The notes beneath the pieces are model-generated. The model was not told the origin of the DNA. It did no database searches and was given only the letters and a program-made list of their open reading frames with translations. A stretch of DNA of 63,983 nucleotides, filler included, from Lenisia limosa (lineage: Eukaryota > Protista > Breviatea), in NCBI GenBank assembly GCA_001655205.1. It is 14 parts of 14 records of this genome, joined end to end, with 100 filler letters (N's around TTAATTAATTAA, not from the genome) between each part and the next. Parts side by side here need not be neighbours in the genome. Positions count along the whole stretch, not along the records: positions 1 to 3,406 come from LPNZ01010136.1; positions 3,507 to 4,542 come from LPNZ01001808.1; positions 4,643 to 17,293 come from LPNZ01001041.1; positions 17,394 to 20,921 come from LPNZ01003518.1; positions 21,022 to 24,368 come from LPNZ01002152.1; positions 24,469 to 28,782 come from LPNZ01006635.1; positions 28,883 to 34,911 come from LPNZ01008097.1; positions 35,012 to 36,764 come from LPNZ01004677.1; 6 more parts are not named here. One strand, given 5' to 3'. This document shows, one piece after another, positions 242-61,814 of this stretch (its first letter is position 1; each line of letters starts with the position of its first letter). The translations under genes were made by a program, and so were the position numbers.

Positions 242-3200
242 TTATTTGGCAACACACTGGCTCTTGCTATTTTTGGAAAATACTTGGGTGTCAAAACCCC
301 TATTGGGGGGGGGGGGGNNNNNNNNNNNNNNNNNNNNNNNNNNNNNNNNNNNNNNNNNNNNNNNNNNNNNNNNNNNNNNNNNNNNNNNNNNNNNNNNNNN
401 NNNNNNNNNNNNNNNNNNNNNNNNNNNNNNNNNNNNNNNNNNNNNNNNNNNNNNNNNNNNNNNNNNNNNNNNNNNNNNNNNNNNNNNNNNNNNNNNNNNN
501 NNNNNNNNNNNNNNNNNNNNNNNNNNNNNNNNNNNNNNNNNNNNNNNNNNNNNNNNNNNNNNNNNNNNNNNNNNNCTTTTCGTGGGGAAGAGTGAGAACG
601 GTGCCATCTGTTTTGATGCGGTAGTGCTCGGACTCAAGAAGGACGTCCTGAGGTCGTGGTGATGATTATGAGGTCAACACTTATCACAATCTCTATACAG
701 TCCCATATAAATCCCAATGAAATCCTACGTCGGAAACCTTCTTGAATTCAACAACGTTGGGGATGGTTTGGATCTCAGGAATGCTCACTGGGGGAGAGGG
801 GAGGGGGGGGGATNNNNNNNNNNNNNNNNNNNNNNNNNNNNNNNNNNNNNNNNNNNNNNNNNNNNNNNNNNNNNNNNNNNNNNNNNNNNNNNNNNNNNNN
901 NNNNNNNNNNNNNTGCAGTGTACCATATCCTATCACTCCAGCGTAGTAATAATGGAAAGGTTCAAGTCTGTCAAGACTTATCCCATCACTGTATATAACA
1001 GAAAAACCCAATATTGATCATAAAAGAAACCGTGAACACCCCCGTACCCATACTATCGATGTTTAAATATCGATATTTATCGAGGATTTATCAGGAATTC
1101 GGTCTTTTAAGGGGGACTGTAAAGAAGCCCTAATTGTAACACCCTCAAACACTCTTCTCATAATCCGCCCACTAGAAACACTCTTCTCGTAAGCCTTGTC
1201 AACCTCGTCCATTGAAATGACGTAATCCATGCCTCCTGCTGACTCCTTCAAGAACTCTTCACGTAGCTTCTCAGCCGCTGCTACTTCGGCTATGGGGGGA
1301 GGGGGTGAAACGAAGGAAATTTCGATGAAGAATATCGGCGTAAAGGTACTAATCACAAAAATAGACAATAGTAGGGTTTATACGATAATACTCACCCCAC
1401 CCCCACTTATACAAATACAATGAGAAATAAAAAATAAGTTTGTATCTGGCNNNNNNNNNNNNNNNNNNNNNNNNNNNNNNNNNNNNNNNNNNNNNNNNNN
1501 NNNNNNNNNCGCCTTACAACTCTGTGCACACAGCTTTCTACTTATACCGACGGACCACACTCCGCCTACCAGGGATGACGGATGCCCCGCTCGCGACAAA
1601 GAGTTTGGCGTAGTACGAGTCCGGACCGCAGGGAATCATGGCGTCCTTCATCACAGTCATGCCTGGGGGGGTTGGTTGGAAATTTAATGAAACAAAAAAA
1701 GAGCCCAAAATCGAGCAACGAAACAAAATAAATATGATAACCCCCCCACCGTCCGCCTGCTTGACCTTGAAGATGGCCTTCTTCATGATGAGGGCGTTGG
1801 CGGCTCCTGTTGGTGAGTGTAGTGATATACAATCGGCAGTAGTGCGGGGACTATTAAGAATAACAAGGCTAACAAGGGAGAGGAAAACAAAACAAATCTC
1901 AAAGAAGTATGGGAATCATACTAATGAAACTGAACAATGAACAAAACAAATTCCAATATCAGACTAAATAAAGCAGTCGTCTCATCCCCATTATACACCC
2001 CCATGGATTTTTAGGTTATCATATAATATATATATCACGTATCATATCATATATCGGACGACCACCCATAAAACAGTGTTTGTTTACCCCCCTCCCCGCA
2101 CCATTGGCTTGGAACTGGAGATGCTCGGACAGTCCGCACTGCGACAGGGTTAGTTGTGGAAATGTTGAAATAATTGAAAATATATTCGGGTTACAAACTG
2201 GGGAAATTTATTAAATGACGGTGGAAGTTATCTTAAATTAACTACACCACACCACTAGGCAAATTGAAAAAATAACTATAAACACAAAGAAACAAAACAC
2301 CAATGGAAAAATGTCTTTAAACTATTTAATAACAAATACAATATATGACTCCCTTACGGCGTGATAGAGCAGGCATTTGCCTCTGTAGAGCTTTGTGATC
2401 ATTTCGGGGGAGGCGTCAAGGATGGTGAGCTAGAGGGGTTAGTGGGGGTAGAGAATAAGGGGGTTTGGTGAGCAGTGATACGAATAGAGATGGGTAGGGC
2501 TTTCCTACGGTTCCAAAAGATACTGAATTTCTCGATAAACCTTCTCGCGAGACCCGTAAGGGCGGTCGTCCAATAATATATATAGTATATGATATATGAA
2601 AGCAATGAGAAGTAATAAATAAAGTTGTATCTGGCCGANNNNNNNNNNNNNNNNNNNNNNNNNNNNNNNNNNNNNNNNNNNNNNNNNNNNNNNNNNNNNN
2701 NNNNNNNNNNNNNNNNNNNNNACATGATGACGGCCCACAACACACCATATCAATGGATGAAATCGGGCCAGTCACAAGATGTTCAACTGCGGTTTTGCCG
2801 TTACCGTCGAGAACGTCGAAGGTGGCTCCTGCGGGGTGTAAGAAGGAAGATTAACAGGTTAGTTGAGGGGGGGAGTAAAACCAAGGAACTTTCGAAGAAA
2901 GATATTGGCGTGAATCCTAACAAAAAAAAACAAAAACCTCTCTCTCAACCAGAAACACTCCTTTGGCCCCTCCGACCTGATTTGATAGCGGCGTTGATGA
3001 GCTTCACGCTTCCTAAAGGGGTTAAAGGGGTTAATTACACTTCCCAAAGGGGGGAAATAGGTAAATCACCAAAGCTGTCAAATGCAGTTATTGTAGTATG
3101 GTAAATTGTTTTGTATCCCTATGTATTTATTAGGTTCCCTAGATTTCTAATGTAGATTATTTCTCTTGTTCAAAAAAAGAAGAAATTGTGACAACGATTG

Positions 3201-4540
3201 GATGTGGGTCGTCCCTACGATCCGAAAAAGACCAGTACAATATCGATATTTATTTACCAATTTTGATCGAGAAATTCAGTCTTTTTGGGACAGTACCTAA
3301 TTATATTTGCACCGTCCTCCTGTTTTCCCAATAAAGAACGAACCGGATTTGCAGGCGTAATGCAGGGGGGTGCTGCCGGACGCGTCAGTGGACTTGAAGT
3401 CGATGANNNNNNNNNNNNNNNNNNNNNNNNNNNNNNNNNNNNNNNNNNNNTTAATTAATTAANNNNNNNNNNNNNNNNNNNNNNNNNNNNNNNNNNNNNN
3501 NNNNNNAACCGTCCTCTCCATGTACTGTGATGAGAAGTGCCATGGCCCAGAGGCCTGTGCTCATGTTCACACTCTGGTATATAAGTAAGGGCCACGTCGG
3601 CAACAGAACGTTTGGATTGACAACAAGCTTATTTAGTACAATGGTTGAATTTCTTAAACATTCCAAGCAAGATAACAAACCTTCGTGAGGGGCCTCAGGA
3701 ATTTCTCTGTCAAAACAGCCTTGAAAAGTGCTTGCTCTGTAGCCAATAATAAAAAAGAGCAACCGCTGATCATTGAGATATAACCCGCATCCTCACCATC
3801 ATAGGTTGACCTCAACCCCACAATTGATACCCCCTCCCCCAACCAGGCGCGCAGTGATAGAGTGAGAGAATGAGGTGGAGTGCTCTATTAACAGTTTCGG
3901 AATGTTGCAGGAGAGAGAACAACTAAGAGGCGTGACAATGGGGTCGGTATGTTCTCCATGTGAGAACTTATTCACCAAAAAAAAACCCCGTAAGTGTTCA
4001 GATAACACAATGTGATACAGCAGTATATATTATAATATGTAGAAATGAGAAACATTACGCTTCACTTCGGTTGGAAAGAAGATGGAATTTCTCAAAAAAT
4101 CCTCGAAAACTATCGATGTTTTACCGGACTTTTTCGAACTGAAGTGAAGCCCTAGTAAAGACTTACCGTATTGACAAACGCAACCACGGAACTGAGTTTG
4201 GCTCCCGTATCTATACAGGGTGAAAAGACGTGAATAGAAAGAGCTCCGCGTCACACAACAATATCGTGAATTTGGTATTCTTTGTTGCATTTTAAAATGA
4301 CAAACTACTATTATCCTATATCTCTTATAAGGGTGATGGTGTGGAAGACTTCAGTAGATAACACCCTGTTGTATTTCCCCTCTCCACAAATGATGCACTC
4401 AAAAGATTATCGCGATTGGGCTTTATTTATAATCAAGAACGTCTACTCCGCTTACCAGTGAGCTCCACGATGTGCGCAATGGAGTCCATCATATCGTTGA
4501 GAGCGGCAAAACGCAGGGGGGAGTGGACGGCTGAATCATT
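242..4540 (-). CDS. Multi-exon ankyrin-repeat protein (5' part and some exons lost in gaps)
   Basis: Hand-spliced minus-strand exons give SPLRFAALNDMMDSIAHIVELT, IDFKSTDASGSTPLHYACKS|GSVKLINAAIKS|GATFDVLDGNGKTAVEHL and GKCLLYHA|CGLSEHLQFQAN|GAANALIMKKAIFKVKQAD|GMTVMKDAMIPCGPDSYYAKLFVASGA. These are ankyrin-like G-x-T-P-L-H-x-A / LL..GA motifs with phase-consistent GT/AG junctions. C-terminal exons (…GFHWDLYGT|DVLLESEHYRIKTDG…) not recognised; end coordinate approximate. Confidence 0.75.
3451..3462. other. Artificial assembly spacer TTAATTAATTAA inside N runs
   Basis: Identical all-frame-stop 12-mer centred in N blocks at 3451, 4587, 17338, 20966, 24413, 28827, 34957, 36809, 39028, 46880, 57492, 60210 and 61760. 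Confidence 0.97.
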
Positions 4541-4789: not shown

Positions 4790-7700
4790 GTCCTGTCATG
4801 ATTGACTATATCTGTGCTTATTGTGGTCACTTTAGTCCCCCCAATAGAAGTTCCTCCCTGTTCAGTGACCGGGATGTCTTGACTAATTGTCCTTCTTAAA
4901 TTACATAGCTAATTGGTCAAGACTTATCCCGGTCACTGTCTATTACCCCAACATACTGTATATTCCATTTTAACACTGTCTACAGCGGCTTTATAATTTG
5001 CAGTAATACCGTTGATGAAAGTGATTAACTCGGGATCACTGCCACTTTCACTCAAAATCTCTAAGTACTTGTCCATGACTTCCTACAAACCATTAATAAG
5101 GTAGTTGAGATTAAATATAGAAGGCTTCCATAAAGTCCGAAAAAGACCAGTAAAATATTGATAGTTATCTAGGATTTATCAAGAAATTCTCTTTTGGGAC
5201 CAAAGGATAAGCTTACGTTAATGGTCAACTTCAATTCAATTCTATAAGTTGGGTCACCAACCACTGGTTATATACTATCCAAACTACTTTGACACTTAAC
5301 AAAACGGCATGATCACAGCATCCAAATTACATCATGTGATATTCTCGTGCTATGGGGGAGTAAAATTGGACAATTTATGAAACAAAAAAAGCCCAAATCA
5401 ACTTCTGTTGGCTGACAACACCCGAATCAAAAACGACTATTCCAACCCTAGTAAACAAGGGTTATAAATAAAGAGGTTTATTTCCCCCAAGAAGTAAACA
5501 CACTTGAGTAATATTTCAGCTAACCCACCATGCTCACATTAATATCCAAATCAAGTATGATCACAGTTTTGATTAAGTAATCCAATATCTCTTATAAGAG
5601 TGATGGTGGATGGAAGTGTCTAACTGCTAATTATATATCTAGATACCCACCATAAATGATACTCCATTTCCAACAATTTAATACCACAACGGCGCATCGA
5701 CCCTTTTTCCCATATAATTCATGGGATTCCCATGTAATAGTAATTCCAACTTGTTCACAAGAAACCTAAGTCAATACGCTGTAGTGATATTTATATTTTA
5801 TTGTCCAAAAATAATATTCTCACAGATAGTGTTTTACTGAAGTTCGAAAATTGACAATTTCTCGACAAATCCTAGATATAATTGGGTATTATTTGTCTTG
5901 AAGAACTGAAGCCCTAATCAAAACTAAATAACAGGGCCCTTTTGTTCTTTGGCGCTAACAGGTGTGGGTGCGGAGGCATGGTAATTTGTTATGGTATCCC
6001 TATGTAGTATATAATAGTTGTTTCCCTAGATTTCTAATGTAATTTCTCTTGTTCAAAAAAACGCTCAAAAATATGATATCTTTTCTCACCGGGTGTTCAC
6101 AAGTACGAGTAAATATGAGGGGTCTGAGAAGAGCTGCTGGATTCTCGCGATTGAAGAAATCCACAATGAACTGAACTATGAAAAAACGAAAAAGTATATA
6201 GAATTGTTTTGTAGTTTCGTATTGTATTCAAGTGGTGATAGTTAGGCTTCATTTCGTTTAGAAAAAAGACTGAATCTCTCGATACATCATCGAAAACTAT
6301 AGATAATTTCCCGAACGGAAGTAAAGCTTCAGTGACAATTGCATATCACGTGATAACTGTCATTTTTCCGCGCATTACTCATTCACAATTTTGTCAAAAA
6401 TGTATGTATGTGGAGGGAGACAAATGCAACAGTATATGATATAAAAGATAATATTGTGGGAGTGTACCTAAACTTAATAATGCATGTCGGATTATATCTT
6501 ATTTTAATAAAGAATGTGTAGGGAGGGCAAACCTTGAATTCGTCGAAAACCGCGTAAGTTGGTAGAACCACCAGTTCAAGATCTAGAAGGCCGTTTACGT
6601 AGAAATACTCCTCTGAATAGTTGAATATTTTGGTCCCCTGATTTGACAGAAATCTTGACTTATTTTACGTCCATTTATGAAAAGAATACAAAACAATCCT
6701 TTTTTAATGATCCCTTACCACAAATTGAGGAAGGAAGAATGGCTGGGATGGTTTGAGAAATATTTGTCGCCACAACATAGCTTTCAAGCTGTAAAGTCAA
6801 AAAAGGACACAATCACGATACAAATGACAAGATGACCAAATCACAAAATGAATTTTCCATCTGTTATGTCTGAAAATGACAGTCACAAAGTCTCAAAATG
6901 ACAAAATCTCAAATGACGACAACGTAGCTTTTCAACTGTACAATGAACAAATACACTGACACAATATGACAAAATGACAGAATGAAAATAAAGACAAGAT
7001 GACAGAATGAAAAAATGACAGAATGAAAAAAAAATAAGACCACATAATAACAAAATCACACATTACACAGAATGATGTGCAAGAGAAAATATGCGTTGTG
7101 TGTAAACGTTACATGAATAAGAGTATTGAGATCCCAAGATTGAAAAGGAACGTGTGCATATTTCACGAAATACCTCATAATAGCTTGCAAACCAAAAATA
7201 TGACAACATAAACCCGCTACGAAAGACAAAAAAATAGCTTGAGATCAAAAATGTAATATCATATTATCCCTCCCACGAATGATTGCAAGAGAATGTCTTC
7301 AACACCGATAAAGCAGTAAATGTTATTTTCATCCACAAATTGCTGGGAGCATATTAGTGCTGCGAGGAAGCATCAATAACAGGGCTGTGGAAGAATTTAA
7401 TTGTGAGGTTTCACGTCCGATTGTGTCAATCCCACAAAAAACTGAATTTCTTGATAAATCCTCTAAAACTATATATCATATAATATATATATATATATTA
7501 CTGGTCTTTTCGAGCCTATTTGAAGCCCTAATAAGTTGGTATAATATCTGAGAGTATCTAATAACTAGAGCTTCCCTAGGATCCGAAAAGACCGATTAAA
7601 TATCGATATTTATCGAGAATTTATCGAGAAATTCAGTCTTTTTTGGGATCGTAGGGAAGGCCTTCTAATAACAGTTCAGATTTCTTTAATTCTCAAAAAA

Positions 7701-10700
7701 TATCACTAAGTATTATTTTTCGAAAAATAAAAGTTCAAAAATGACAAAAGCTCTTCTAAATGCAACCTAGTAAAACAGGATTAAATAAAAACACAAAATA
7801 TATCAGATTACTGCGTTATTGAATACACAAAAAGACCAATTTTTTTAGCTATTGGACAATAGCTGCTAACATCACAAGTGACTTTGAAAATTCAGTGCCA
7901 TTCCGGGGAGACCATATTATCAAACCCACCTCAAGCATTAATGGCGTAACAAGCTCAGATATGATCGTGGAGCCACTTTCAACCTAATTACGTCAAGGTC
8001 TTTATACAATGCCCGGAATAAGTCTTTCTTGACCGATTTGCAATATCATACATATGATATACAGTGCCTGGAATAAGTCTTGACATAGATATGATTTCCC
8101 AAGAAAAATCGGTCGACTTGTCCTGGTCACTGTATGTATACAAAGTAGACTAGGATAAGAAGAGGAAAAGAGCCCATTTCGACGTACCGTAATTTATTGA
8201 GTCATGGCGATTAAATTGAAAGTATTAATACAATATTAATAAAATATTAGGTAATTCTTTAATACTTAAGTTTCAAGTATTAGAAAAAGGGTGAAGTATT
8301 TAAATCTGTGTTTTGCATAATATTTCTTAATAAAACAAATATTTAAAAATTCATTGGCCCATTCTTTAAAACTTCATAACATACCCTGGTTGCTGCCTCC
8401 CTAGTGGCCTTTTGAGAGTTTCGATGACGATTATTTCTCACGTGACTGTGGTCAATTCCATGAGGATTTGTTATTAGCTTCTGGAAAGGTAAACTCCTGG
8501 TGGATAATGGGGTGGGAGTTCGGCTTCATGTCAGTTAAAAACAGACAATTTTTCGATAAATCCACGAAAATTATCGGTACTGGCCTTTTTTGAACCGAAG
8601 TCCTAGTAGGGTGTACGTTTGGGGGGATTGTGGGCGGTAAAGGATAGCAGAAAGTAGAAAGTGAGGAGATGACATGGATTTACTTCACACTTACATTTGA
8701 TTTCATAGGTAATATTATGTTTCGTGAATACCGTTTATAATTGGATGCGAGTGAAAGATTGAAAGTCAAGGAGTAAAAAGTACTAAACTAGATATTTTAC
8801 CTGTAGTATCTGAAATACACTTCCCACAAACTTGAATGTTATACGAAGCCTGCCCAATGTACAGGCCAAATGGGCCGTCGTCCACCAGGAAGAAAATGTT
8901 GTTGCTGAAGACACCCTCCACTCCTCCGAGCTTGTTTTGCTGCAGAGGGAGTAAATAGGGACAATAGACGGGAATGGAGCAAAATTGGAAACTTTTTGGG
9001 GGTAAAGCCCAAATCAACTATGTTGCTGTCAAAACACTTTTGATAGGGAGTAAAATCGGAAACTTGTTGGGCCTGTCTAAAAATGGTGTGGCTCTTAAAA
9101 AAAATGCCTGCAAAAAAACCTTTCATTTTTTTATTTTGTTCAGAAAAATACCAATTTTACCACTTTTTAATATTTATCTACAGACGCTGCTGCCCCCTTT
9201 TTAGATGAGCCACTTTTTTGTGGGAAAGCCCAAGGTCCGATCTGATGGGGGTAAAAATGGACATTTTTGAAAACAACCCGGTTCGTATTTGGGAAACACT
9301 AAACATTGTTTTGCTTTAGGGTAGTAATTGAATATCATATCACTTTTTGGGTCATTTTAACACGTGTAAACTGTCAATTTCCACTCAATGATATGATACA
9401 TTATATCATTTGATATCATTTCGACACGGAAGTCGGTCAGACCCGATGTACATGTATATGGGTCAACATTAATAAGAAGGAAGCTATCTCTAGGTTTAGA
9501 CTCAAACAGATGCTCAAACAGCACCTCCATTTTGAGATCAAATGCCTCACTATGGCGCATCGACTTAGGATTCCATATGGGAATCCTATAAATTTCTTCA
9601 AATTTCTACATAATTCCATTGAATTCCCATGTAAAATATGGGAATTCCAACGTTTTCCCAAGAACCCCAAGTAGATGCGCCGTAGTGCTCTCGTTCCCAC
9701 CTCCAAGAACCCAAAAAAGGTGCCGACGTTGAATTCGGCCTCTTTTTGACCGAAACTGGAGGTAGCCATCTGAGGGCGTTAGAATTGTTAATTATCAAAT
9801 ATTTAGGAAATTGTAAAAAGTTGAATATTGAATTGTTATGTTTTTGGGAACAGTTAGAATCAAATTTTAGAGGACTTGTTAGGAACCCAAACAAGGTCTA
9901 AATAGCGAAGGAATTTCAAATTATCGTTAAAATAAAACATAATTTAATAATCGCCATAAAATTTTCAAAAAAAAATACATATGATTATCGAATTGCCTTT
10001 AAAAACAAAAACCAACTCAAATCTTCCCTCAAACATGAGCAAAAATATGGTGGTCGAAGTGATTGAACTCCTTGAGAAGAATTCCACAGTTTTGAACCGG
10101 AAGGGCGAAGATGGTTGTTTTGACCCCATCCTTGATCAGATTCTAAAAGTGTCAGGAAAATTGTTATTAGATTCTAAAAGTAATAATATTGTTGTTTTGG
10201 CGACCTCTTCTTCAATCACATTCTAAAACAAGTTCTTTTCAACACATCTTGAAATTTTAAAAGTGTTCTGTGACATGTCAAGGTAACTGATAAATAGAAT
10301 TATGAGGAAAAGATATGGCTTCGTTTCGGGTATAGAAAATGACTGAATTCAATATGAATTCATGAAAGCTATGGATATCAACAAATTTACCAGAACACAC
10401 CTACATTTATAGTAAAGTGCACACCCAAGTCTTCACTTGGGTTCGAAAAATACCGGTAAAATATCGATAATTGTCGACGATTTATCGAGAAATTCAGTCT
10501 TTACAAACCGAAGTGAAGGCTTAAGCACACCACCCCACATTAACAGAACCGAGGTCCACGAAAGGACCCTTGATTTCGATTTCCTCCGTAGGGGGGGCAT
10601 CAACGGCTGTTTGTTGGAGAATATTCACCTGACGAATTCCCTATTTGGTAAGTTCATGTCCCTACTTGGTAAATTCATGTCCTTATTTGGTAGCTTTTTG

Positions 10701-13700: not shown

Positions 13701-16527
13701 TTTCGATATTTCCTAAATTAAGTGTAATATTGAAAATATTGATGTTTCTGAATACAATAGTGATGTTTGTGAATTTAAAAACTAAAACCTATCATATACT
13801 ACCCCCTTCAATGAACAATACCGCCACCCTTAATTACCATAAGCATCGTCCTGATAGATAAGGCCAATTTTGAATGAAGATCGTTTAGCAATCGTGAATT
13901 GGACCATTGCTTCGAGTTCATCATGGTAAGACAGACGCAGATTGAAAATGTTGTCAGGGAAAGGGGACGTGGATCTAAATGTCAAACAGATAAATCAAGT
14001 TGCAAAAACCACACCAAAACATGCGAACTTAGATAATTGAATTCAAGAAGGATATTTCCAGATTTCCCAGATTGTATTTCATGTATTTCCCTTCTTTATT
14101 TTTAGCATTTGTACTTGTATTGCATTTGTGAAGAACTCTCTTGTTTAGTGTACCTTTTGAATCTCCATTGTATTTCCTGATCCAATTTCAAACAAATAAT
14201 ACTTTTAATAAATTTATATTGCACCCAAAATCCTCAAAACAACATCCCCCAAGGCTTCACTGCAATACAACAATAGATCCAAAAGATCGGTAAACTATTG
14301 AAAAATATGGAAGATTTGTCAAGCAATAGTTATTTTCAGAATCAATGAATCTCTATTCTGACTCTCAAAAACAAACGTTCTAATTTCGACTAAGACAAAA
14401 ATGATATATTATCCCCACCTGAATGCTTGTCCTCCGGTTCCCGGATTGAAGATCAAAAAGTCCAGGTTTTTCTAAATTAAGAAAGATGAACACAAATTAT
14501 TACACTTCGGCGTATCGGCAAGGGATATTGTATTTGGCAATCGCATTAAATTTACGTATCTATTTCTTTAGATTTCCACAACCCACTCAGTGCTACTGTG
14601 GAAGATCATATATTTGTTTGTAAAGTGTGAACTGTCAAGATTTTTCTGAACCATGCCACTAAGATAACCAAACAACTAGAACTCCGTGCAATTAATTATG
14701 TGAAGGAAATTAATTGACAAAATGAAAATATGTCTCACTTCAATTTTTCAATTAATTTTGCAATTTGCATTTTAGTACTCTGAATATCGTTGCGATTGGA
14801 TTATACACCAGTATATGTATGTACCTGTATGTGAGAAGCCCCATACCCATAAAAGCTCCCTACCCCCTTACATCTTTCAGAATTTTGACAATTTCCTTGT
14901 TCGCTGCGGTACCCAGTGTACTGGTAAACGATAGGATATCTTCCTGAAAATTGTAACATTACTGCATATTGATCATTTCCTTTTTGGTCTTTGGTACCCC
15001 CGTGAAACATTTTGGGATTTCCAATATTTACAAGGAAATCTCATGAAAGTTTATGGAAACCTTATGACAATTTATGAAAATTCGAAGATATTTATGGAAT
15101 ACCCAAACACTACAAGGGAATTTCAAGTTGAAACGGAGACATGTGTTGCTTTGAAATCACGAAAATTGTGCTGCGAATCTAATATTAATTTTACAATATA
15201 GTTGGTAGTGAATTCGCGAACCTTGATCATCTTGAGGGTCAGCTGCCTCGTGATTACTGCATCATAGTTGTCATTGGCCAACCAAAGAGCTATGGACTTA
15301 TTGCGAATTCCACCCTAAAATGTTAGGAAAATACGAATGCAATATGGCCACATTGTGACTTATTAAGAATTCCACCATAAAATAGTGGCAATTATAAACA
15401 ATGTGGACCAAACATGGATAAAACCGGAGGAAAATCAAAATATGAATTGATGCTTCACTCCATCCCACCTTGAGATTCTGCTCTTCAAAAGCAATTTTCA
15501 ACCCTGTAATAAGGCCAATAGCTTGTCCAGAAGTCTGCCCTAGATATTGGGGGGGAGGGGGGAGTAAAATTGGAACATTTATGAAAAAAGCCCAAAATCA
15601 ACTCTGTTGGCTGATAACACACGAGGGTTGAAAACAACAAAGTCTACTCATAAAAAGGAAAACAAATAAAAGGGGTTATCGAGCATTGTGGGAATGATGA
15701 CCAAATTACCTTTTTCACCCCTCCCACCNNNNNNNNNNNNNNNNNNNNNNNNNNNNNNNNNNNNNNNNNNNNNNNNNNNNNNNNNNNNNNNNNNNNNNNN
15801 NNNNNNNNNNNNNNNNNNNNNNNNNNNNNNNNNNNNNNNNNNNNNNNNNNNNNNNNNNNNNNNNNNNNNNNNNNNNNNNNNNNNNNNNNNNNNNNNNNNN
15901 NNNNNNNNNNNNNNNNNNNNNNNNGGGAGAAGCAAGCACCCATGTTCCTCCTGAATTGGGTACTGTGGGCTTTGGAGGTAAATCAAGAGGAAATGGAAAA
16001 TTAGAAAAACAAATACGCAAAAACAATATGAAACATCTAATATTATGAAAATCAAAAACGATGAAAAAAGATAAAACTGATGAAGCAAATAAAAATCCAA
16101 AATTTGGTAACATATCAATAGTTTTCGAGGGTTTATCGAGAAATTCAGTCTTTTTTCGAACCAAAGTGAAGACCTAACAGTAAGAGATTATTCAGTGACT
16201 TGTATCACGAGAAATTATAGAACATAGTTGCCAGCGTGTCGGGACTAGGAGGAATATATACATTTATATCATCATAAACTATGTAAAACAACAGTGAACT
16301 AAGGCCAGAACTACAACAATCACGTTATTTGCCATCATATATTGACATCATAGAGAAGAATAATTATCGGCCCCTCGGTTAGGGATCCTAAAATCGGCAA
16401 CAAAACAGCGTACCTCGGGAGGGAATGGGGGAAGTACGCCGATATCCTGTGATAAAGCCGACAGAAAACAACTCAGGAGAAGAAGAGTTGCCACAGCTTG
16501 AATAAGAGAATAGGTTAGCAAGGGCAT
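4790..16527 (-). CDS. Signal-peptide protein with type-1 periplasmic-binding (Venus flytrap, LivJ-like) domains, probably two; receptor-like
   Basis: ATG at 16527 gives MPLLTYSLIQAVATLLLLSCFLSALSQ (signal peptide). Later exons: GQTSGQAIGLITGLKIAFEEQNLK, LWLANDNYDAVITRQLTLKMIK, EDILSFTSTLGTAANKEIVKIL, FLIFNPGTGGQAFR|STSPFPDNIFNLRLSYHDELEAMVQFTIAKRSSFKIGLIYQDDAYG, and a second-round motif ALICSQQFVDENNIYCFIG at ~7290-7365. 3' end uncertain. Confidence 0.7.
5978..6060 (-). mobile_element. Repeat family C (…TTTTGAACAAGAGAAAT…TAGAAATCTAGGGAA…TACATAGGGATAC…)
   Basis: Homologous copies at ~3098-3178, 5978-6060, 38795-38875 and 62455-62530, all reading TACATAG|G on the minus strand. Confidence 0.65.
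6820..7035. repeat. Degenerate AAATGACA-rich repeat in an intron
   Basis: More than 10 occurrences of (A)ATGACA/ATGACAG. Confidence 0.65.
7568..7662. mobile_element. Hairpin MITE family M1, subtype b
   Basis: TIR GGCTTCCCTACGGTCCGAAAAAGAC…GTCTTTTTCGGACCGTAGGGAAGCC with the same ATATCGAT…TTTATCGAGAAATTCAGTC core. Copies at ~1065, 2497, 3205, 5122, 12525, 20772, 28116, 38915 and 50175. Confidence 0.8.
8062..8132. mobile_element. Tc1/mariner-like MITE family M2
   Basis: TA|CAGTG(A)CCGGGATAAGTCTTGAC…GTCAAGACTTATCCCGGTCACTG|TA. Copies at 916-991, 4863-4938, 38055-38130, 51378-51440 and 58446-58520. Confidence 0.8.
9069..9213. mobile_element. MITE family M4 (two copies)
   Basis: 9069-9213 and ~62037-62174 share GTCTAAAAATGG..GTGGCTCTT…GACGCTGCT.CCCCCTTTTTAGATGAGCC, with imperfect terminal inverted repeats. 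Confidence 0.65.
9548..9687. mobile_element. Non-autonomous CACTA/CMC-like MITE
   Basis: Termini CACTATGGCGCATCGACTT…AAGTAGATGCGCCGTAGTG (inverted), flanked by CT on both sides (2-bp TSD). Degenerate copy at 5685-5786. Confidence 0.7.
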
Positions 16528-16823: not shown

Positions 16824-16895
16824 GAATCCTTGGCGCAATGGTAACGCGTTCGACTCCAGATCGAAAGATTGGGGGTTCGATTCCCTCAGGGTTCA
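16824..16895 (+). tRNA. trnW-CCA: tRNA-Trp (anticodon CCA)
   Basis: Acceptor stem GAATCCT/AGGGTTC, D arm TGGCGCAATGGTAACGCG, anticodon arm TTCGA-CTCCAGA-TCGAA, T loop GGTTCGATTCC; followed by a long T run (Pol III terminator). Confidence 0.95.
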
Positions 16896-16897
16896 CA

Positions 16898-17705: not shown

Positions 17706-17940
17706 TATCAGATCTGAATGCGCTCAACTCGGCTGGCTTTGTTTTTTTATTACATACGACACACTGGTTGGCGGTGGTTATTGTCGGAGAGAGAGGGCTG
17801 GAACTGGCTGGAAAGAACGGAGGAGAAAATTCAGTCTATTTGAAATTCCGCAGTTCCGAAAACTTATACTTTTTGGTTTTGGTTTTGGAATTTTGGGTCA
17901 TAAAATTAATAAATTAAGAAAAGAAAAGAAGAATAGCGTA

Positions 17941-18643: not shown

Positions 18644-18967
18644 GAGGTGTGTTTGGGGTGTTTTTTTACTAGGTTTATTTCTCATCTCTACTATCTGATA
18701 TACTATATGAGATATACTATACATAGTATTATGATATTTGATTTGCAAGTATAGCAGATGATATGGTTTCAATTTCTGATTTATAAATCGATATATGATA
18801 TATCATAGGAAATGTCAATAACATTGTACTCACAGCGCCATGAATCAACCGGGCCCTTGCGAGCTTATCTATTATCCTTGTGTGTTTCTCAAATATTTAA
18901 CAAACAGTGTTAACACAGGGTTTTGCTTTATTTCATGTTTTCCACTTTTACTCACCCNNNNNNNNNN

Positions 18968-42225: not shown

Positions 42226-42283
42226 TGATTACTTTTGATTATATTTTTTAAATAAGGATTTTTGCAACCAGAAACTATTTACG

Positions 42284-45200
42284 ATGCGAATTAGACAACT
42301 CACGTGTATATTATTGCTGGTTATTTCAGGCTTAGCTGCGTCGTCATCTGTACAGTGAGTGGATCTTTCTCCAACATCCCCTGCATCCATTATTTTGGGC
42401 TCTACGGGTAAATATTATTATATAGTTTTGTATATATACCACTGAACCCGAAAATGATCATTCCACAGGTGCCTTGACGAACATGGCGAACCAGTTGACT
42501 GGTTTGTGACTCTTAAGATCCCGCCATGCTCGACATGCCCTGGGCAAGGCGCAGGATACCTCTACGCAGACGCACACAACCCTCTTTTGAAGGACTACAA
42601 CAAGCGTCTCGACACTCTTCATGGCAATGACATGGCTGGTGTTGTGGTAGGTGGGGCTCAGTGCCTTCTTGTCCCATGGAAGACCAATGTACCCGGGTGG
42701 TATGGTATTGTTGGTAAAAATGGGTTGTCACAAAAACATACGCTTCACCATGGGTAGTAGAGAGATCTCTACTCATCTCCAACTTTAGCGGACCCAACTT
42801 TATGTTCCTGCTGTCAGCTTTACTCTTCCCACACAGACATTGATATATATATATATATTCATATGGGTCTGACCACATTGGTAATAGGGTAGACTATTGA
42901 TAAGGAACAGCTTTTATGGAGCGGATTTGACCAGCTTATTTGTGGAGAGTTGGCGACTATTATCTCACAACACAGCGCACATTGAACCAGATTTATGCCG
43001 ACCCTCGAAGCGAGCACACCGCGTGGGGTATGTACAACGATCAGGACTCCGACGAGTGGCCAGTGGGTGTCTGTCTCTTTTTTCTTATTCCTAGGCATCA
43101 ATATTCAAATTAATTTGAATGATACCATCATCCTCGGAGATTGGACTATTATGATAAATCCTTCTGTTGTCATGATTCCTATTTTTGTCTTTGTCAAGCC
43201 TTATATCAATATGTTTTGGCAATATCTTTCTACAATCTTCAGCACTAATCTTCTATATTCCTCTGTGCAGTTGCCACACCATCCGGTTAGTTGAAATCCA
43301 TCGATATTCGTCTCCTTTTTTTTTGACCTTTCATTCCTTTCTTTGGAATAGTATCACCAATAGTATTACTTTTACTTTGTGTTCTCTATTGTTAAGTTTT
43401 TGTGATTGTATTAGACACAAGGCATAAATTTGAACCTACTATCCTATAATTTTTCTTTTTATATATAATTAAAAATTGTGTTCTTTAACTCTCGAATAGG
43501 TGACAATTTTCCTGGTTTTAATATTTGTAGACACAGACCAACGGACATACCAAGGGAGTGGTTGCATTTGACGACTCCACCGGCTTCTGGTTGATCCATT
43601 CGGTTCCTCGCTACCCGTCTCCTCCCTTCATGGTAACTTGGAGTGCTTTATCATCGAGAACGTCTTCCTTCATGTCCCCAAATATTGAGCTATATCTTCA
43701 ATGGGTATCTTTGAACTTAATATATGTGCAAATTTACACGAATCTTCTCGCAAAAATTGAAATAATGTGGTATTTTCCTCTGTACTGGAAAACAATTCTC
43801 AACCTTCTTATATTCACAAGCTTCAACGAATTTTCATTTTTTTTAGGGTAATATGACGCTTGCACAGAACTTTTGGTGTTAGAGGGGATCACCTATTTTT
43901 TTTTTTTCTTGATTCTGAGGTCCTTCCCGCAGTGACCATCAGTCTTTTCATGATTTCAGCCTACGGACAGTCCATGTTGTGCGTCACTGTCAAATCAAGC
44001 TATTTCGAACGTATTGCACTGCAGTTCGTTAATACGCATCCCTTCTTCTACGATTCCAATATCTCCAATACGTAGGCCAACTTCAAACTGCCTAGAGTAA
44101 TGATGCTACAAGACGTCTTTTCATAACGCCTAACTCTAATCCGGCAGGATGGCTGAGAAGCACCCCGCAATGAAGCTCCGATTCGATAATGCTCGTGACA
44201 CTAAAAGTGACGTTACAAGTGAACTCAAAGTTGTCACTCTTGCGGGACAGGAGTTCATGCAGTATGGGGGGGAGGGGGGGCATCCTTCGCCTGCTGCTTC
44301 GAGGAACTAGTTGCTGTAATGCTCGTTTATTATCATCGTTTTGCTATTATTCTCATTCTCATAGTTACGCTAAGAACCGCGGGTGGGAACATGAGATCTT
44401 CGAAGATTTACTTGCTCCTGCATTCCAATGCGATATGATTGGTGGGCTGCTTGCTAGTCATATTTTGAAGTAGTTTTACTCGTATTTCATGCAAAATCAA
44501 ATGGGTATTTTGATCTACTTCCTTCCCCATGTAATCTCCAACGCCTCTTTCGCCTTGGTTTTTATTCTTCACTCAAAATGTTCACCCTGTAACGAGATAG
44601 TTTTGCTTTCTGCAGTTTTCTGACCTGATTAGCTGAGACCTGGATCAGAAATCCGCCTCTCCCCTCCTACTGCCGCCCCAATTACCGTTACGAAGTCCAC
44701 AACATTAACAGGATATACGTGGGCAAGATGGGGCTTGTTGAGCAGGATTTCATGCGTACTCTCAAAGAATACCCGTTTACACGCTTTTCCTCATCTTTTT
44801 TTCTTGAAATATTATACTATTATACGAGTATATCATACATGATCATTGACTTTCTAGTATCCAGATGATGGTTCTGATTGGAAGGAGACCCAGGATCATT
44901 CAAAGGTGAGCGTTCCTGAGTTATTTAAATAAGTCACTTGGAATTGAATTTGCATTAGTGGAATTAGTCACATGTCATTTGAATCGAAGTATTGTGCCTG
45001 ATGAAGAATCGTTGAAACCTGACCCTCCAGTGGGGCCTTGCCGTTCCAGCGTGCAACAACCCCGTGGTGTGCATCGGAGACATCAATAGAATGAGCAGCC
45101 AATTGCATCGTGGTGGTGGCTACCTTTGCATGAAGCACCCTGAGCTTTATGCTGAGTTCCATAGACTTGTTAAAGGGGTATGTAGGGGAGATGCTGTTTG

Positions 45201-47225: not shown

Positions 47226-47966
47226 TTGTCGGTACTGGTCTACTATTTATTTCTACTGTATACTCAAACCCTGACTGGCTTATATTGAATCAATTATTTC
47301 TCATTTGTAGAAGAGCCTTGATTCCTTTTTTTTTCATTTTTTGAACAAGGTCCATTACAATCTGTTTCGTCAGTTTAACTGTCCACTAAATAGTTGGGGA
47401 GGAGGGGAGGAGGTAGCTGAGTGGATCCTCGTTGCACCAGAGCTCTGCGTTGGCACGAGCAACTCTTACGAAGAAAGTAGTAAGGCGTGCTTACAGTTAG
47501 CATTGTTAGTCTTTCAAAAAGATCCACATGCAACCGCCCACCACACGCAACATAAGCCCCCTCAACTGCTCAGAGAGCACACAACGAGCTTTCTTTAGAT
47601 AATTTATGATGCTTAAAATTGTCATCACAACATCTCATCTTGATAAATCACAGTAGAGTCTTCGAATAGATCAGTCAACTAACGCTCTATGCACCCCCCC
47701 TTCTGGGTATTACTTTTTTTTACAAAGAATCAAGCAAGCTCATCAAATGAAACAACACCACACTCATAGTTTAACAAATGAAGGCAACATCAGCTCAACA
47801 AGAGGGGGCATAACATTGAAAGGCAAAGATTGATCATAGAAGTTCCACACACGATCACCCCATTATTATCGGAAAGCAGTAAGAAAAACATTAAAAATAC
47901 ATTTTGAGCACGATGACAGACCATACGCAGTGCTCCTGGTGAAGAAACAGGGGGGAGAAGGTGGTC

Positions 47967-48407
47967 TTAGGCAGACTTCTCGAGGCACTCCTGAAAACAA
48001 AGTGAGAAACGCAATTTCAAAAGTCCGACCCCTTAATCAACCCCAACTCACAAGCATGACGATTGAAGAGCCACGAATGAACTAGAAGAGGGTGAGAACA
48101 ACGAGGAAAAGGAAATCAAAGAAGTTGAAAAACTCTATTCCTGGCTAAAAAAGCAGTACTATCCTAACTTACCACAGATCCGATTTCAAAACGACCAGTC
48201 TTGCCCTCTTCAACAGTCTCCTCAACGACAAGGTTCATGAATTGGTCAAATCCACGGAGAACACCAGTAACAGCACGGTTGGCGTTCAGCTTCACTACAT
48301 AAGCGGTTAAAACTAAACAGCAAAAACATCTTCACAGGATTTCCCCACCAACCGAGAACCTTGTGGTCCATGAGGTTCTTGAGATCCGGGAGAATAACTT
48401 TACCCAT
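47967..48407 (-). CDS. SNRPG: Small nuclear ribonucleoprotein SmG (4 exons)
   Basis: MGKVILPDLKNLMDHKVL|VKLNANRAVTGVLRGFDQFMNLVVEETVEEGKTGRFEIGSV|FIRGSSIVML|ECLEKSA*. Confidence 0.95.
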
Positions 48408-49079
48408 TTTAGAATGTTTTAAAGGGAAATTGCGCTTGGTTTTTTATTGCTTTTATACTGCGCGTACACGTGGCGTACCACTTGAAGTTGACCGAGCCAG
48501 AAACAATATTCAATTTTGGCGGCTAACAAGGCAAATATAGGAGTATTTTGTCACTGAATGAATTAAAGATGATAATAATGAATAAAATGAGCACACTTGT
48601 AGTTCTTTTATTATGCATTTGTTGGCAGATCTCGGCAAACAGCCTGGGTTGTGTCCCCTTTTCCACCCTGAGTGCTCCTAAGGTTTGGTCAAACTAAACT
48701 TATTACTGGACCAGCACCCTTTGGTGGTTCTTTCCTCAACGTTGAAATGTATGCTTCCGATAGAAGTCCTCTTCTCCATACCCATTTAACTCAGCCTCAT
48801 CTTTATACTACACTAATTCACAACTTTTATTTATTATTATTTTTATTGGCAATCTTTGTTGGCTATTTACCCTGATTCTATCGATTTGTGACCCTCTTTT
48901 CTTGGATAACCAATTTTCTTCAGGGTATGGTACAGTTAAATATCATGTACATATCATATATGAATATCAAGACAAATCCTTCTCTGTTGGGCTCTGATCA
49001 TTTTATAGTCATCTCTAAAATGCCTGTACAAATTCAATGTTTATTTGGAGACAATGCTTATTTTTTTGGACACAATACC

Positions 49080-55867: not shown

Positions 55868-56238
55868 AGCTGACATGGTTTAATATGACCAAACATTGTT
55901 CCCCTTGCAACTACCCTATTTGGTATTGGGAAAGTAGTGCTTCTTGATTATTACTAACTTCTGATTTGTCATACTGTTTTCTTCAATTCTTTTTTACTTT
56001 TATTTATTTATTTATTTTATTATTCGTAGAGAGAGGTGTAGAAATATCTATAAACTGGGTGAGACAGAGTGCTGAGGGTGCTTGGTCTTTTTTGCTGGTG
56101 CTAAAAAGAAACAAAATTCACCGAAATAAAGCAGGAGGCAGATCTGACCTGATGAACGGACGAAACTATATTGGTACAAACATTAATCACCCCCAATGGT
56201 GCACCAAATTAAGAAACGTTCAGAAATAAGGTAGCTGT

Positions 56239-56645
56239 CTACTGGAGCTTGTGGCCAACAAGGTTGTTCTCTTGGAGAACATGGTTGAGAGAAGAATCAG
56301 CCTCACCAGCACGACGAACCTCACCGCAGAATCCAACAGTGAAATAAGAACCGGTCTTCTTGCCTTCAAAAATCAGCCAAAAATCAAACCTCCAAAAAAA
56401 CTTTGTGAGCCAAAAATAGAACAAAATGTCTCCATATCCACCTACCGCTGTCGTCAAGGTGGGCGACGTTGATCTGGACTGAAGAGCGGTCCTTAGCGTG
56501 GATGAGCTTGTTAGTGGCGGTGCTAAAAAAGCGTAAGAGCATTGTAACGCTAAAACCAGACTTCACAAAAAAGAGAAAATAATAAGTATGCTTACCACTT
56601 GCGGGGGACGTAGAGGTCAACACACTTTCCGTTAATATCGTTCAT
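56239..56645 (-). CDS. RPS21: 40S ribosomal protein S21 (eS21), 3 exons
   Basis: MNDINGKCVDLYVPRKC|TATNKLIHAKDRSSVQINVAHLDDS|GKKTGSYFTVGFCGEVRRAGEADSSLNHVLQENNLVGHKLQ*. Confidence 0.95.
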
Positions 56646-56775
56646 TTTCGAGTGGGGGTTCAAAAAGGACTCTAGCTCGAAAAAATGTCAACATAAAGGA
56701 AATGAACTGAACTGAACTGAACTAATGTATTACGATTTTAGATTGTCTTTTATTTTCGGTTTTTGTTTCCTATCT

Positions 56776-57297: not shown

Positions 57298-57671
57298 GCA
57301 GTATTATTATGACACTTGTTACTCAGTTTTTTGTTGACTGAAATTAAAAGGATAGTATGATTCTCAAAGAAAGAAGGAAGCGGATTATTTTCTCTTATAA
57401 AGAAAAGTACTGTTCTGGTTTTGAGCAGAGAGTTGTAGGGTAAATGANNNNNNNNNNNNNNNNNNNNNNNNNNNNNNNNNNNNNNNNNNNNTTAATTAAT
57501 TAANNNNNNNNNNNNNNNNNNNNNNNNNNNNNNNNNNNNNNNNNNNNCCCCCCCCCCCCCCCTCCCCTTTGTTTGTTCTGTTGTTATCAACCTTCGTGTG
57601 TTGTCAACCAACAGAGTTGAATTTGGGCTTTTTTGTTTCATAAATTTTCCAATTTTACCCCCCTCCCCCAC

Positions 57672-59342
57672 TTGCACTCATTGAGATGCAAATCGGTCTT
57701 GTAACACGTCAACGCTGTGCCTTCATTGCAGGTGGGGGCCGTAACGTCATTGGACTCGCTGAGTTGTTATACCAGGGAAATCGAGGGAGAACATGTACGA
57801 TGGGAAAATGAGACACACCACACAAGAGACCCAAAATATCCAAAAATCCCCCACAAAGTCTCGGAAGTAGCGTTATAATTGAGAGCAACCCGGGCCGTGA
57901 CATTGGCGGATCCGAGGAGTTCTATTGTCGAAATTTGACTGAAGACAGGATTGGCTAAAAATGCGGTTAAGCAGAGTAGAGATTGAATAATAAAAAAGAG
58001 TATTTGGCAGAAGGCGACCTCACTACAAGATATAGTTTAACTCCACAATTTGAGGAGAAAATAGCAGGTCCATTATTTTTAGACCTTCATCGGTTTCAGA
58101 AAAAGACTGAATTCTCGATAAATCCTCGATAAATATCGATATTTTGTCAGTCTTTTGGACCGAAAGTGAAGCTCTAATTATTTTTCTCCTGGCAATAATT
58201 TTTTTTCATTCCCTTTTCTCAATTTTGTTACCTCCGCCCCCCTCCTAACTTGAAACATCTGTGACAACGACCGTTTCAATTGGGGTCGAATTGAGCAGGA
58301 TTGTCACCTGGATATGTTACAGTAAAAGCAGGGTTTCACTTTGGTTGGAAAAAAAGACTGCATTTCTCAAAAATTTCTCATAAATTCTTCATATTTTACC
58401 TGTATTTTTCGAACCGAAGTGAAGAGAAAACTGCCTTACAATTACTGACCGGGATAAGTCTTAGCCGATTTGCTGCGTGATTTCCCAATAAAAATCGGTC
58501 AAGACTTATTCTGGTCACTGTATAGTATATAATACTGTGTACCGGAATTTTTAATATGTTTCATAAGTTGCCCCTTGTGATCAACGGACTAACTCTGGGT
58601 ATAAATATCACTGTGTGAAAAATATGAGATACTTCTGAAGTCAGAATAGTATATATATACGATCAATATTGAAACTTATGTTTCTGCAGTAAAGGTGAGA
58701 GTGACAAGATGATGTGAGTATTGTTTGACATCAGTTCAAGTATTCCTTGTATACAGGCAAGTTGTACCTATAAAGATATTCATTTCGGTCTAGTTGCATT
58801 TCTCAATCAACACCTATGATTATCTCCTAATATACTCCCCTTACCACCACCCCCGATTTGGTTACTATATAGTCTCTCCTCTCCAAGTCTCTATTGAAAC
58901 AAGGATCATGAATTTTTCTTGAATATCCCTCCCTCCATGCGCACCTCAAAACTCTCAAAGCTCGGGACTTGAGTGGTGTTGAAGGTCCAGCTGACAGTAT
59001 AGTCATGGCCAACGCGTGAAAAGTCTACAGGGAAACCTGCGGAAAGTTGTCAATCTTGAAATGAGGTTGGGAGAGAGAAATTCAAGAGAAGGGTTGTGCT
59101 CTATATACGTAATAAACATCGTGTTATATGTGCATTTCCACTAGAAATAAGGATAAGGAACTCAATAGAGCGAGCCGAAATAAAAACTCTCGAATTCTCC
59201 TTTATTTTCTCATAAACTCCTCTAATATGCTAAAACAAGTAAGAAGCGTGTCTGTTAACCACGCCCCTCCTGACAAACCTGCTGAAAAAGAAGTAGTGAA
59301 AAGCCAAACCAGCAATAATGCAATGCATGGAAAGCGAACCAT
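57672..59342 (-). CDS. Secreted Cys-containing protein (3' end in gap)
   Basis: Signal MVRFPCIALLLVWLFTTSFSA|GFPVDFSRVGHDYTVSWTFNTTQVPSFESFE … VTILLNSTPIETVVVTDVS … ELLGSANVTARVALNYNATSET|FESNDVTAPTCNEGTALTCYKTDLHLNEC. Confidence 0.7.
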
Positions 59343-59593: not shown

Positions 59594-60164
59594 ATGTCAA
59601 TGCTGCGTCTGCTGTGTCTCCATGGCTTCCGTCAGTCCGCGTCATCCTTCGTTGGGGGGGGGGGGGGGGNNNNNNNNNNNNNNNNNNNNNNNNNNNNNNN
59701 NNNNNNNNNNNNNNNNNNNNNNNNNNNNNNNNNNNNNCATATTTGTTGTTTTCATTTTCCAATTTTACCCCCCCAGAGAGGACGGACGAATGGTTTGCGA
59801 AAGTGTTTGAAAGGCGTTGAACTTGTCTATATGAACGCCCCTGTCAAAATCTCTGATTCACCCGAAGGTACGGGGGAAATTATGAAACAAAACAGCAAAG
59901 GTGAGGGTTGACAACAACAAAATAAATAATATTCCAATTCTACGCACCCGTTGCGCTTTTTTTTGTTTTTGTGTTTTGTTTCTTGGTTTTGTCTAGTTTT
60001 AGCGCTGGTTACTCGTGTTTGTTCTTGCTTGTTTTTTTTTTGTTTGTTTGGAGATTATTCAGTTCTGGATTAGTACCGTTACGCCAATCTTCTTCATCAA
60101 ATTTTCCTTCGTTTTACTCCCAGACAACCCACAATACGGATGGTGGCAGACAGAGCTAAGGGAC
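59594..60164 (+). CDS. FSH1/OVCA2-family serine hydrolase, N-terminal part
   Basis: MSMLRLLCLHGFRQSASSF|RGRTNGLRKCLKGVELVYMNAP…|DNPQYGWW: the LCLHG.Q and downstream AP / WW motifs of the family. Confidence 0.85.
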
Positions 60165-60289
60165 CNNNNNNNNNNNNNNNNNNNNNNNNNNNNNNNNNNN
60201 NNNNNNNNNTTAATTAATTAANNNNNNNNNNNNNNNNNNNNNNNNNNNNNNNNNNNNNNNNNNNNTTCGAAAATTACGTCCCCCCCCTC

Positions 60290-61595
60290 ACATCTTCAGA
60301 AGTGATGCTGTGTCCGGGCTTCCTCTTGCGGGAATTGTATGAGTCACTAGAGGGGTACTTCTTCTTGGACTCTGGGGGAAATGGGAGTTAAAACGATTCT
60401 GGGAGGGATTCTTTCAAAACGGCTTAATAATACGGTTTGAATCAAATGTAAGACCCCCAAACACTGATACTCTACCATCCACTCCCTCCCCACTCATATC
60501 TTCCTGAGCCTTTTTGTCCTTCTCAATTTGTTCCACCCAACTCGCAGCTCCTTCAGACTGCGGGGGGGGGGGGGGNNNNNNNNNNNNNNNNNNNNNNNNN
60601 NNNNNNNNNNNNNNNNNNNNNNNNNNNNNNNNNNNNNNNNNNNNNNNNNNNNNNNNNNNNNNNNNNNNNNTTGGTATAATCAATACAGATATTTTTTTTT
60701 AAAAAAAAAACCCAAAAATCAACTTAGGTGGATGTAAACCCCATGATCAAGGGATGAGGAGGGGAAGTAATCATGAACATGACAAGGGCTACCATCACAA
60801 CCAAATCCTCAACACTCCAAAAAAACAAACCCACATAACCGCCCAAGATACCTTCATTACACCCTTCCACCCAGGCTCTCCCGGGACCTTTGGGTCGACT
60901 ACGGGAGTTGTCGGCCTGGATGGTTATTGAGGAAGAAATAAGACAAGAGAAACAATATATGCATGTACATGGTATCAACCTGGAGGCTATAGATTGGGTT
61001 GGAATCCCGCCTGAATGTTGCTAGATAGAGGAGAAGTTGGCAGTGAGACAAAATAATAACGTCATTTGCATTGCATGTAAAATGTATGTTAAAGGTATGA
61101 TGTCCCTGTGTAATATGATATTAATTAGTATTTCTTGACTCACTTAATGTCGTTAAGCACCATAAATGTTTAAGGGGTTCCTATGAAAAAGAGATTTATT
61201 GAGGATTTATCGAGGATTGAGAAAGTCATTTTCCAACCAAGTGAAGTCCTAGGTGGAACCAATACCGCCTTACGGTTTAGCAATGGGGAGTTCCGGGATT
61301 TTCTGAATAAGAACACGGGGGGGATCAGAGTTGGCAAAGGAAAGCGCAGACTCTGTCACACTAATGGATTAATAGTTGCCACAGTTTATGTAATATTAAT
61401 TCACCCAATCGGTTGCCTAATCTTTGTGCATACAGCTTTCTGCGTGACTACCCAGTATCTCCAACATAATATACAAAATATACATTTCATTATTTACATG
61501 TGTTGGAAGGAAATCCCGAACATACTTTGCTAATGTGCTGTCAACGTCAGAGTTTGGCAGGATCTGGTTGTGCAGGAATCGCAAAATGAAGTCCT
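60290..61595 (-). CDS. Unknown protein fragment (about 6 exons)
   Basis: DFILRFLHNQILPNSDVDSTLAK, ESALSFANSDPPVFLFRKSRN, ATFRRDSNPIYSLQ|ADNSRSRPKGPGRAWVE, SEGAASWVEQIEKDKKAQEDM|…KKKYPSSDSYNSRKRK. Confidence 0.5.
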
Positions 61596-61814
61596 GGGGG
61601 GGGGGGGTAAATTGGAAAATTTATGAAACAAAAAAAAGCCCAAAATCAACTGACAACACACGAGGGTTGACAACAACAACAACAACAACAACAAAAAAAG
61701 CCCAGGCCAGTCGCTNNNNNNNNNNNNNNNNNNNNNNNNNNNNNNNNNNNNNNNNNNNNTTAATTAATTAANNNNNNNNNNNNNNNNNNNNNNNNNNNNN
61801 NNNNNNNNNNNNNN

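Follow-up and report, generated by a model that had tools for sequence, protein, structure and literature searches.

In the portions of two introner surveys considered here (PMC12130899, PMC9860276), a repeated intron sequence is required to show similarity at both intron ends, and secondary insertions into pre-existing introns are discarded. According to part of the text of PMC3879977, partial copies of the Micromonas introner element (IE) family IE-A lie buried in conserved canonical introns in 32 cases, copies can be nested or merged, and an RNA-level route has been proposed for the Micromonas IEs; fungal introner-like elements are thought to move by reverse splicing (excerpt of PMC9860276). 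A preprint on Entamoeba (10.1101/2022.06.08.495308), again as excerpted, poses the homogenisation of splice signals as an open question; the donor consensus reported there is a different motif. Here we describe family A, a repeat found at the 3′ ends of introns in unrelated genes of the breviate Lenisia limosa, within a stretch of 63,983 nucleotides from assembly GCA_001655205.1 (hereafter the window) that joins 14 scaffolds through N-padded linkers, has 38% GC and derives from an intron-rich eukaryote. Our analysis makes it quite probable that family A occupies the 3′ ends of already existing introns secondarily; it belongs to an unusual splice-site-targeted repeat system comprising at least two families.

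A hidden Markov model (HMM) of family A, built from 14 copies (12 from the window and two from contigs described below), gives 23 window matches at E<0.01, of which 12 are its seeds, and none in any of 10 block shuffles; this confirms the existence of the repeat, which had been proposed in a sequence-only reading of the window. At E<0.05 there are 27 window matches. The full-length consensus of 143 nt, with a 5′ boundary based on six full-length copies, starts GTGATGGG and ends in TTTTAC, a C tract and AG. Match ends cluster at consensus positions 130–141 and starts vary from position 2 to 105; the fixed 3′ end, 5′ truncation and simple-sequence tail are those by which short interspersed nuclear elements (SINEs) and other non-long-terminal-repeat elements are recognised. 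Five copies begin at consensus positions 2–4, at a GT, and the consensus terminates in AG, so that family A has the shape of one whole intron. Copies are freely truncated, range from 57% to 95% identity to the consensus and include an older subfamily.

Inspection of the ends of the six full-length copies revealed no consistent terminal inverted repeat (TIR) or fixed target-site duplication (TSD), and readings of family A as a Helitron or a TIR element were rejected because the ends are not consistent. Rfam returned no match at E≤1 over 35100–35330 and, across the window, only an unrelated tRNA (gene at 16824–16895, RF00005); a tRNA-, 5S- or 7SL-derived head was likewise not found with Rfam. 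No stable fold was found for family A (z=−0.46), nor was a poly-A tail seen on it; a structured RNA was rejected on the Rfam and folding results.

Genome-wide abundance is known from read depth alone, and all other counts given here refer to the window and to contigs of the Colwellia bin G001, two of which were hit when prokaryote genomes were scanned for the family A pattern. Three G001 contigs, C39, C67 and C69 (L088, L101 and L089, respectively; 16.7 kb), hold families A, B and C together with introns, and would seem to be contaminating DNA, from this eukaryote or a close one, inside a bacterial bin; family A had no matches in viral contigs. In L089, a galactokinase-like gene (named by eye) has family A ending two successive introns. 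Two public runs from a single study hold the Brr2 stretch of the window, X1 (introns covered ~30-fold) and X2 (poly-A RNA); X1 is possibly the source of the assembly and hence not independent of it. Summed contig depth at 20511 is 122,636 versus 30.9 for unique DNA, a ratio of ~4,000, with just three RNA-run contigs giving coverage there. Since summed depth is no copy number, we take the abundance only as ‘thousands’, and the genome likely carries thousands of copies. Copies are clustered by scaffold (p=0.0007, one copy per intron), as are, at p=0.03, those of family B, a ~100-bp palindromic miniature inverted-repeat transposable element (MITE) with 23 window copies that served as control. Family A is absent from ~30 hand-read introns of genes for DNase II, RPS21, an Sm-like protein and two unnamed products.

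The association with acceptors was assessed by asking for a YAG no more than 16 nt from a branch-like motif and at least 45% GC over the following 40 nt, in copies with E<0.05, an intact 3′ end and no gap (gap-cut or 3′-less copies having been excluded beforehand). By this measure 17 of 31 family A copies (12 of 21 in the window) lie at an acceptor; the family B MITE reaches 3 of 43 ends (Fisher p=8e-6), opposite ends score 0 of 28 and random sites 11%. Under a looser criterion the figures were 20 of 31 against 11 of 44. Of the 14 copies that fail, nine are sub-terminal as judged by reading, either placed behind a further 3′ module or no more than ~50 nt from the acceptor, two are terminal but below threshold, and three are unclassified (5353–5443, 57567–57669 and L088:1317). 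The sequence-only reading had counted ~20 introns in which the repeat ends precisely at the AG; this holds for ~14 window introns, namely the 12 passing the test (two of them in putative genes only) and those at 15540 and 20668, assigned by reading frame. Neighbouring copies within a scaffold lie on the same strand in 16 of 18 pairs, and the repeat follows the strand of the gene as had been stated, the exception being a single antisense copy (59872–59928, −; a weak match, with parts at E=0.02 and 3.6) whose G run lies directly behind the donor at 59868 of intron 59868–60123. Together, the acceptor counts and the strand bias support the earlier suggestion of extreme targeting to 3′ splice sites. 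The branch motif, C tract and AG at the 3′ end of family A are also the general acceptor signal of the host, and family A likely supplies the branch and acceptor signals of the introns that it ends.

Pfam, run on 300 of 461 candidate window open reading frames (ORFs), all single-exon, confirms two of the gene names proposed earlier, Brr2 (Sec63, Helicase_C and SNRNP200_wHTH) and PIG-Q (Gpi1); in the same set the VFT receptor, the ankyrin gene, the transmembrane protein and FSH1 have no Pfam support. In PIG-Q, a young full-length copy (35148–35279, −; E=3e-36) forms the last 132 nt of intron 35148–35356, and intron 35687–35789 (−) is nearly all an old copy; in each case the Gpi1 match picks up again with the exon that follows the A copy. 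The 85-nt intron at 29478–29562 (+), across which the frame is continuous, comprises a 7-nt donor followed by consensus positions 66–143, and was rightly described as almost wholly repeat (consensus match over 78 of 85 nt). A short old copy (1663–1712, −; E=5e-5) lies at the acceptor of intron 1663–1749, with an open frame across the intron, and a young near-full-length copy (38451–38575, −) forms the end of intron 38451–38634, directly behind an older C tract. The 3′ end of family A also coincides with the acceptor of intron 59651–59776 (59743–59776, +), and a young copy at 61594–61715 (−), its 5′ end cut by the scaffold end, is at an acceptor too; the young, 5′-truncated copy at 15540–15647 (−) has its AG 22 nt past the branch motif.

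Brr2 provides the check at the RNA level, and is the one gene for which this check was made. A single RNA contig joins 19086–19279, 19433–19503, 19794–19910 and 20166–20381, from which it follows that three A-bearing introns are excised: 19280–19432 (+; position 216.2), with an old copy at its 3′ end; 19506–19795 (+; position 241.0), in which a family A copy (19609–19711) is followed by a family C copy (19738–19795) giving the used acceptor; and 19913–20167 (+; position 280.0), with family A at 20095–20167. Removal by splicing, one of the criteria for introners, is thus observed for these three. Two further Brr2 introns bear family A: the 77-nt intron 19012–19088 (+; position 153.0), which is A-like throughout and overlaps the start of the RNA piece at 19086, and 20384–20668 (+; position 352.0), with an old copy (20393–20441) and a young full-length copy (20482–20668) lying across a gap.

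Intron positions in Brr2 were compared, with our own spliced aligner, against the best 80 of 618 Brr2 and ASCC3-like loci. Position 153.0 is common to 6 of 78 covering loci, including one whose exon closely matches human Brr2 (L041) and an ASCC3-like locus (L066), and many exon-ORFs begin there. Position 280.0 is common to 1 of 77 loci (L012), and 6 of the 120 exon-ORFs listed, all of one clade, end there as judged by eye. The last Brr2 donor of the window, at 374.0, is common to 2 of 71 loci; the 3′ end of its intron lies beyond the scaffold. Three of the five phase-0 positions match the eight known ones, for which p is ~3e-4 under a uniform model and 0.03 at a generous 15% prior. The sequence-only reading had named ancestral intron positions as the finding that would speak against its view of family A as intron-generating, and this is what is seen at two of the five A-bearing Brr2 introns (153.0 and 280.0), the other three being unmatched. 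At 153.0, the 77-nt intron aligns to the consensus from first to last base with a score of 73.5 (best of 200 shuffles, 41.5); the simplest account of an old position filled entirely with sequence from the repeat is that the intron was overwritten, the alternative being that it was lost and an intron then gained in parallel at the identical CAG|GT site.

Five young full-length copies begin 75, 59, 98, 269 and 206 nt inside their introns, and the sixth full-length copy follows another copy close to the start of a contig. Similarity among A-bearing introns reaches the 3′ end only, and their donors differ from each other and from the consensus start. By the published test, which asks for similarity at both boundaries, family A is not an introner, and the proposal that it is an intron-generating element is not supported for the copies that can be judged. 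Several introns carry two modules of unequal age (20393 with 20482, 22726 with 22811, 37757 with 37594, and pairs in L088), and 19506–19795 carries A followed by C. In the tandem pair at 22726–22923 (+), in a putative gene, the younger copy is upstream and the older at the AG, with 83% identity to the consensus at 22726 versus 68% at 22811; in the intron with two copies at 37549–37757 (−), neither is at the frame-keeping acceptor (~37523). Since stacked copies differ in age, they record separate events.

For how family A reaches these sites, we give an even chance to insertion from a template, with priming at the poly-C/AG tract of introns already present. The template would probably be the RNA of a founder intron, a whole intron RNA being favoured because the copies share a start at a GT. 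Should the C/G run with which most introns of this organism end be nicked or broken, the exposed end could pair with the same run on the template, and synthesis would then copy the template upstream, stopping anywhere up to its 5′ GT. Rejoining might keep the old 3′ end, giving stacked modules, or delete it, sometimes nearly to the donor, giving introns of 77–103 nt that are almost wholly A. The intron would remain spliceable, as the new piece has its own branch motif along with a C tract and AG; each copy would become both a new template and a better target. In favour of this route, 3 of 14 young copies have a C-rich stretch immediately upstream, the sole antisense copy is situated at a donor G run, and family C shares the placement of family A. 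More tentative, and in our view somewhat doubtful, is a genome-wide drive in which the excised RNAs of a few founder introns, templating at the C/G run of other acceptors, replace branch points and acceptors in thousands of unrelated introns, some of which predate the Brr2/ASCC3 split, with gene structure unchanged; if true, splice signals would be evolving in concert under an intron-RNA parasite of a kind that introner surveys exclude by design. In one G001 copy, two A residues separate the starting GT from an older branch motif, resembling the processed intron circles described in an excerpt of PMC10996645; as one case of six, this junction is not used as evidence.

Several points weigh against secondary occupation or against the templated route. 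The sample is ~77 kb, and position sharing was examined in one gene. Within Brr2, positions 216.2 (0 of 80 loci), 241.0 (0 of 78) and 352.0 (0 of 71) have no match, and none of the three is matched among 240 listed exon-ORFs either; exon-ORF boundaries give no support for 352.0 in the 120 listed of 483, mostly fungal-like, or for 241.0 in the 120 listed of 276. A missing match says little about novelty, because introns are absent from most of these loci and the scan is biased towards loci in which the query exon is uninterrupted, and some intron gain may have occurred at these three positions. When the A-bearing phase-0 introns are taken alone, two of four are shared, with p between 0.006 and 0.11 depending on the prior. 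Regarding the mechanism, 3 of 14 young copies directly follow a C-rich tract and the other 11 do not, the associated p=0.0002 depending on those three copies and on control windows that overlap and were picked by hand. An RNA template and a DNA template would give near-identical products, and no reverse transcriptase, nuclease or transposase was found among the 300 of 461 window ORFs scanned.

Target-primed reverse transcription leaves a fixed 3′ end, a variable 5′ end and a simple-sequence tail, a signature that the ends of family A fit. They could accordingly belong to a conventional non-autonomous element, SINE-like or a DNA transposon end, whose partner nuclease prefers C/G runs that happen to lie at splice sites. 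The C runs that flank 57567 and 38575 on either side, the antisense copy at a donor G run and the richness of this genome in MITEs are all in keeping with such an element, and we regard it as a serious, if unlikely, possibility. Against it, family A showed no Rfam match, stable fold, poly-A tail or consistent TSD or TIR in the searches above. In the window, G runs of at least 6 occur after a GT 16 times and C runs before an AG 23 times, yet just one antisense copy sits at a donor; two unrelated families, A and C, moreover behave alike.

The consensus that spans GT to AG, and five short introns that are largely A-like, raise the question of whether a true introner made these introns, its 5′ parts having later decayed and some copies being secondary insertions into older introns. 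The three unmatched Brr2 positions and the loose end-to-end alignment of 19280–19432 can be read in this way, and introner remnants do occur inside canonical introns in Micromonas (part of PMC3879977). The 5′ match of 19280–19432 is, however, weak and G-rich, and none of the five young full-length copies with a visible donor begins at it. Given also that A-bearing donors resemble neither one another nor the consensus start, and that the wholly A-like intron 19012–19088 sits at a position common even to the ASCC3-like paralogue, we consider this origin improbable.

Random insertion followed by selection, with sense copies surviving only near the acceptor because elsewhere they would capture splicing, is very improbable. 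In its favour, the copy at 19609–19711, which is followed by an unused AG, is tolerated, as are mid-intron copies such as 37757; such a filter would spare antisense and intergenic copies, yet 16 of 18 pairs are same-strand and only a single copy runs antisense to its gene. An intron element with a conserved function (a splicing enhancer or intron-encoded RNA), kept by selection rather than copying, would account for a 3′ end that equals the host branch and acceptor signal, and is hardly credible given identities of 57% to 95%, subfamilies, free truncation, whole genes without family A, and the absence of an Rfam match or structure.

The remaining family A copies in the window are a young copy with a TAG directly after it and a putative downstream exon (5351–5443, −); two stacked degenerate modules ~37 nt upstream of an acceptor (8972–9069, −); an old-subfamily copy whose 3′ end enters a gap (18849–18958, +); a 5′ part with its 3′ end in the gap preceding an exon (30583–30630, +); a fragment cut by a scaffold end (36865–36904, −); and the young, 5′-truncated copy between C runs, its acceptor unassigned (57567–57669, +). 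Many donors in the window consist of GT with a G run, and many acceptors of a C run with AG (for example 19280, 20734, 31549 and 59651), and assembly gaps coincide with these donor G runs and acceptor C runs. By hand count, GTA donors are rare in A-bearing introns and frequent in A-free genes. The ends of the 81-nt intron 31549–31629 form a ~10-bp inverted repeat (G run plus TAAAT after the donor, the complement before the AG).

Family C is found at intron 3′ ends in at least four window introns; copies lie at 31386–31461 (+; end of intron 31191–31461), 1290–1372 (−), 2866–2948 (−), 36520–36596 (+), 60041–60123 (+) and L089:3035–3075. The copies in L089 and at 31386 agree at 40 of 41 bases, which indicates that family C is young too. 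A and C as a single family were rejected, their similarity not being significant (85 of 1000 shuffles score as well). Family B copies lie at 4055–4156, 7560–7669, 10430–10524, 20768–20859, 38232–38333 and 18 further places, with a summed depth of 136,756 at 20823 (~4,400 times unique depth), and family D, a palindromic MITE-like repeat of ~90 bp, at 4863–4935, 8048–8143, 38041–38134 and 58444–58532 as well as in L088 and L089. Upstream of the Brr2 piece, 17902–18649 is a separate gene, where an RNA contig of depth 162 joins 17902–17995, 18101–18223 and an exon at 18611 before exiting the scaffold; the 10-N gap at 18958–18967 likely hides more sequence. Genes for DNase II, RPS21 and a Myb domain (Pfam) and an Sm-like gene (by eye), at 42300–45200, 56230–56650, 39085–39321 and 47950–48410, have introns without family A.

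Repeated intron sequence and intron gain, which are usually equated, come apart in family A. Since an old intron position can hold wholly young sequence, calls of intron gain that are based on sequence can mislead. Family A also offers a route by which a lineage could homogenise its splice signals, and, with dated junctions by the thousand in a single genome, the RNA-templated mobility of introns could be put to a direct test. Our literature search found no repeat confined to intron 3′ ends, which says little as the searching was narrow and relied mostly on strict phrases.

Antisense Alu copies can provide a pyrimidine tract and AG inside an existing intron, where they make cryptic exons. As in family A, a repeat donates 3′ splice signals within an existing intron; Alu, however, inserts in both orientations and in many places, whereas family A is nearly confined to one strand and to the true acceptor. 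With introners, as far as the excerpts describe them (Gozashti et al., PMC9860276, PMC12130899; review PMC11282704), family A has in common a sequence shared across introns of unrelated genes, a carried splice site and a high copy number. It differs from them (excerpts of PMC9860276 and PMC12130899) in that similarity extends to the 3′ boundary only, no TSD or TIR was seen, and some positions are common to distant eukaryotes; the both-end requirement and secondary-insertion filter of the surveys would remove it. The fungal introner-like elements, in the part of PMC9860276 that treats them, resemble family A in lacking a TSD or TIR, in gene bias and in a probable RNA intermediate, but are whole introns at new positions, whereas the 5′ end of family A is variable and internal. 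The closest case is Micromonas IE-A, which, on the portion of PMC3879977 considered, likewise occurs on the sense strand only and has partial and nested copies. In Micromonas such remnants form a minority and no longer have either splice site, whereas in family A partial copies are the rule, the 3′ signals are kept, and the copy forms the acceptor in use.

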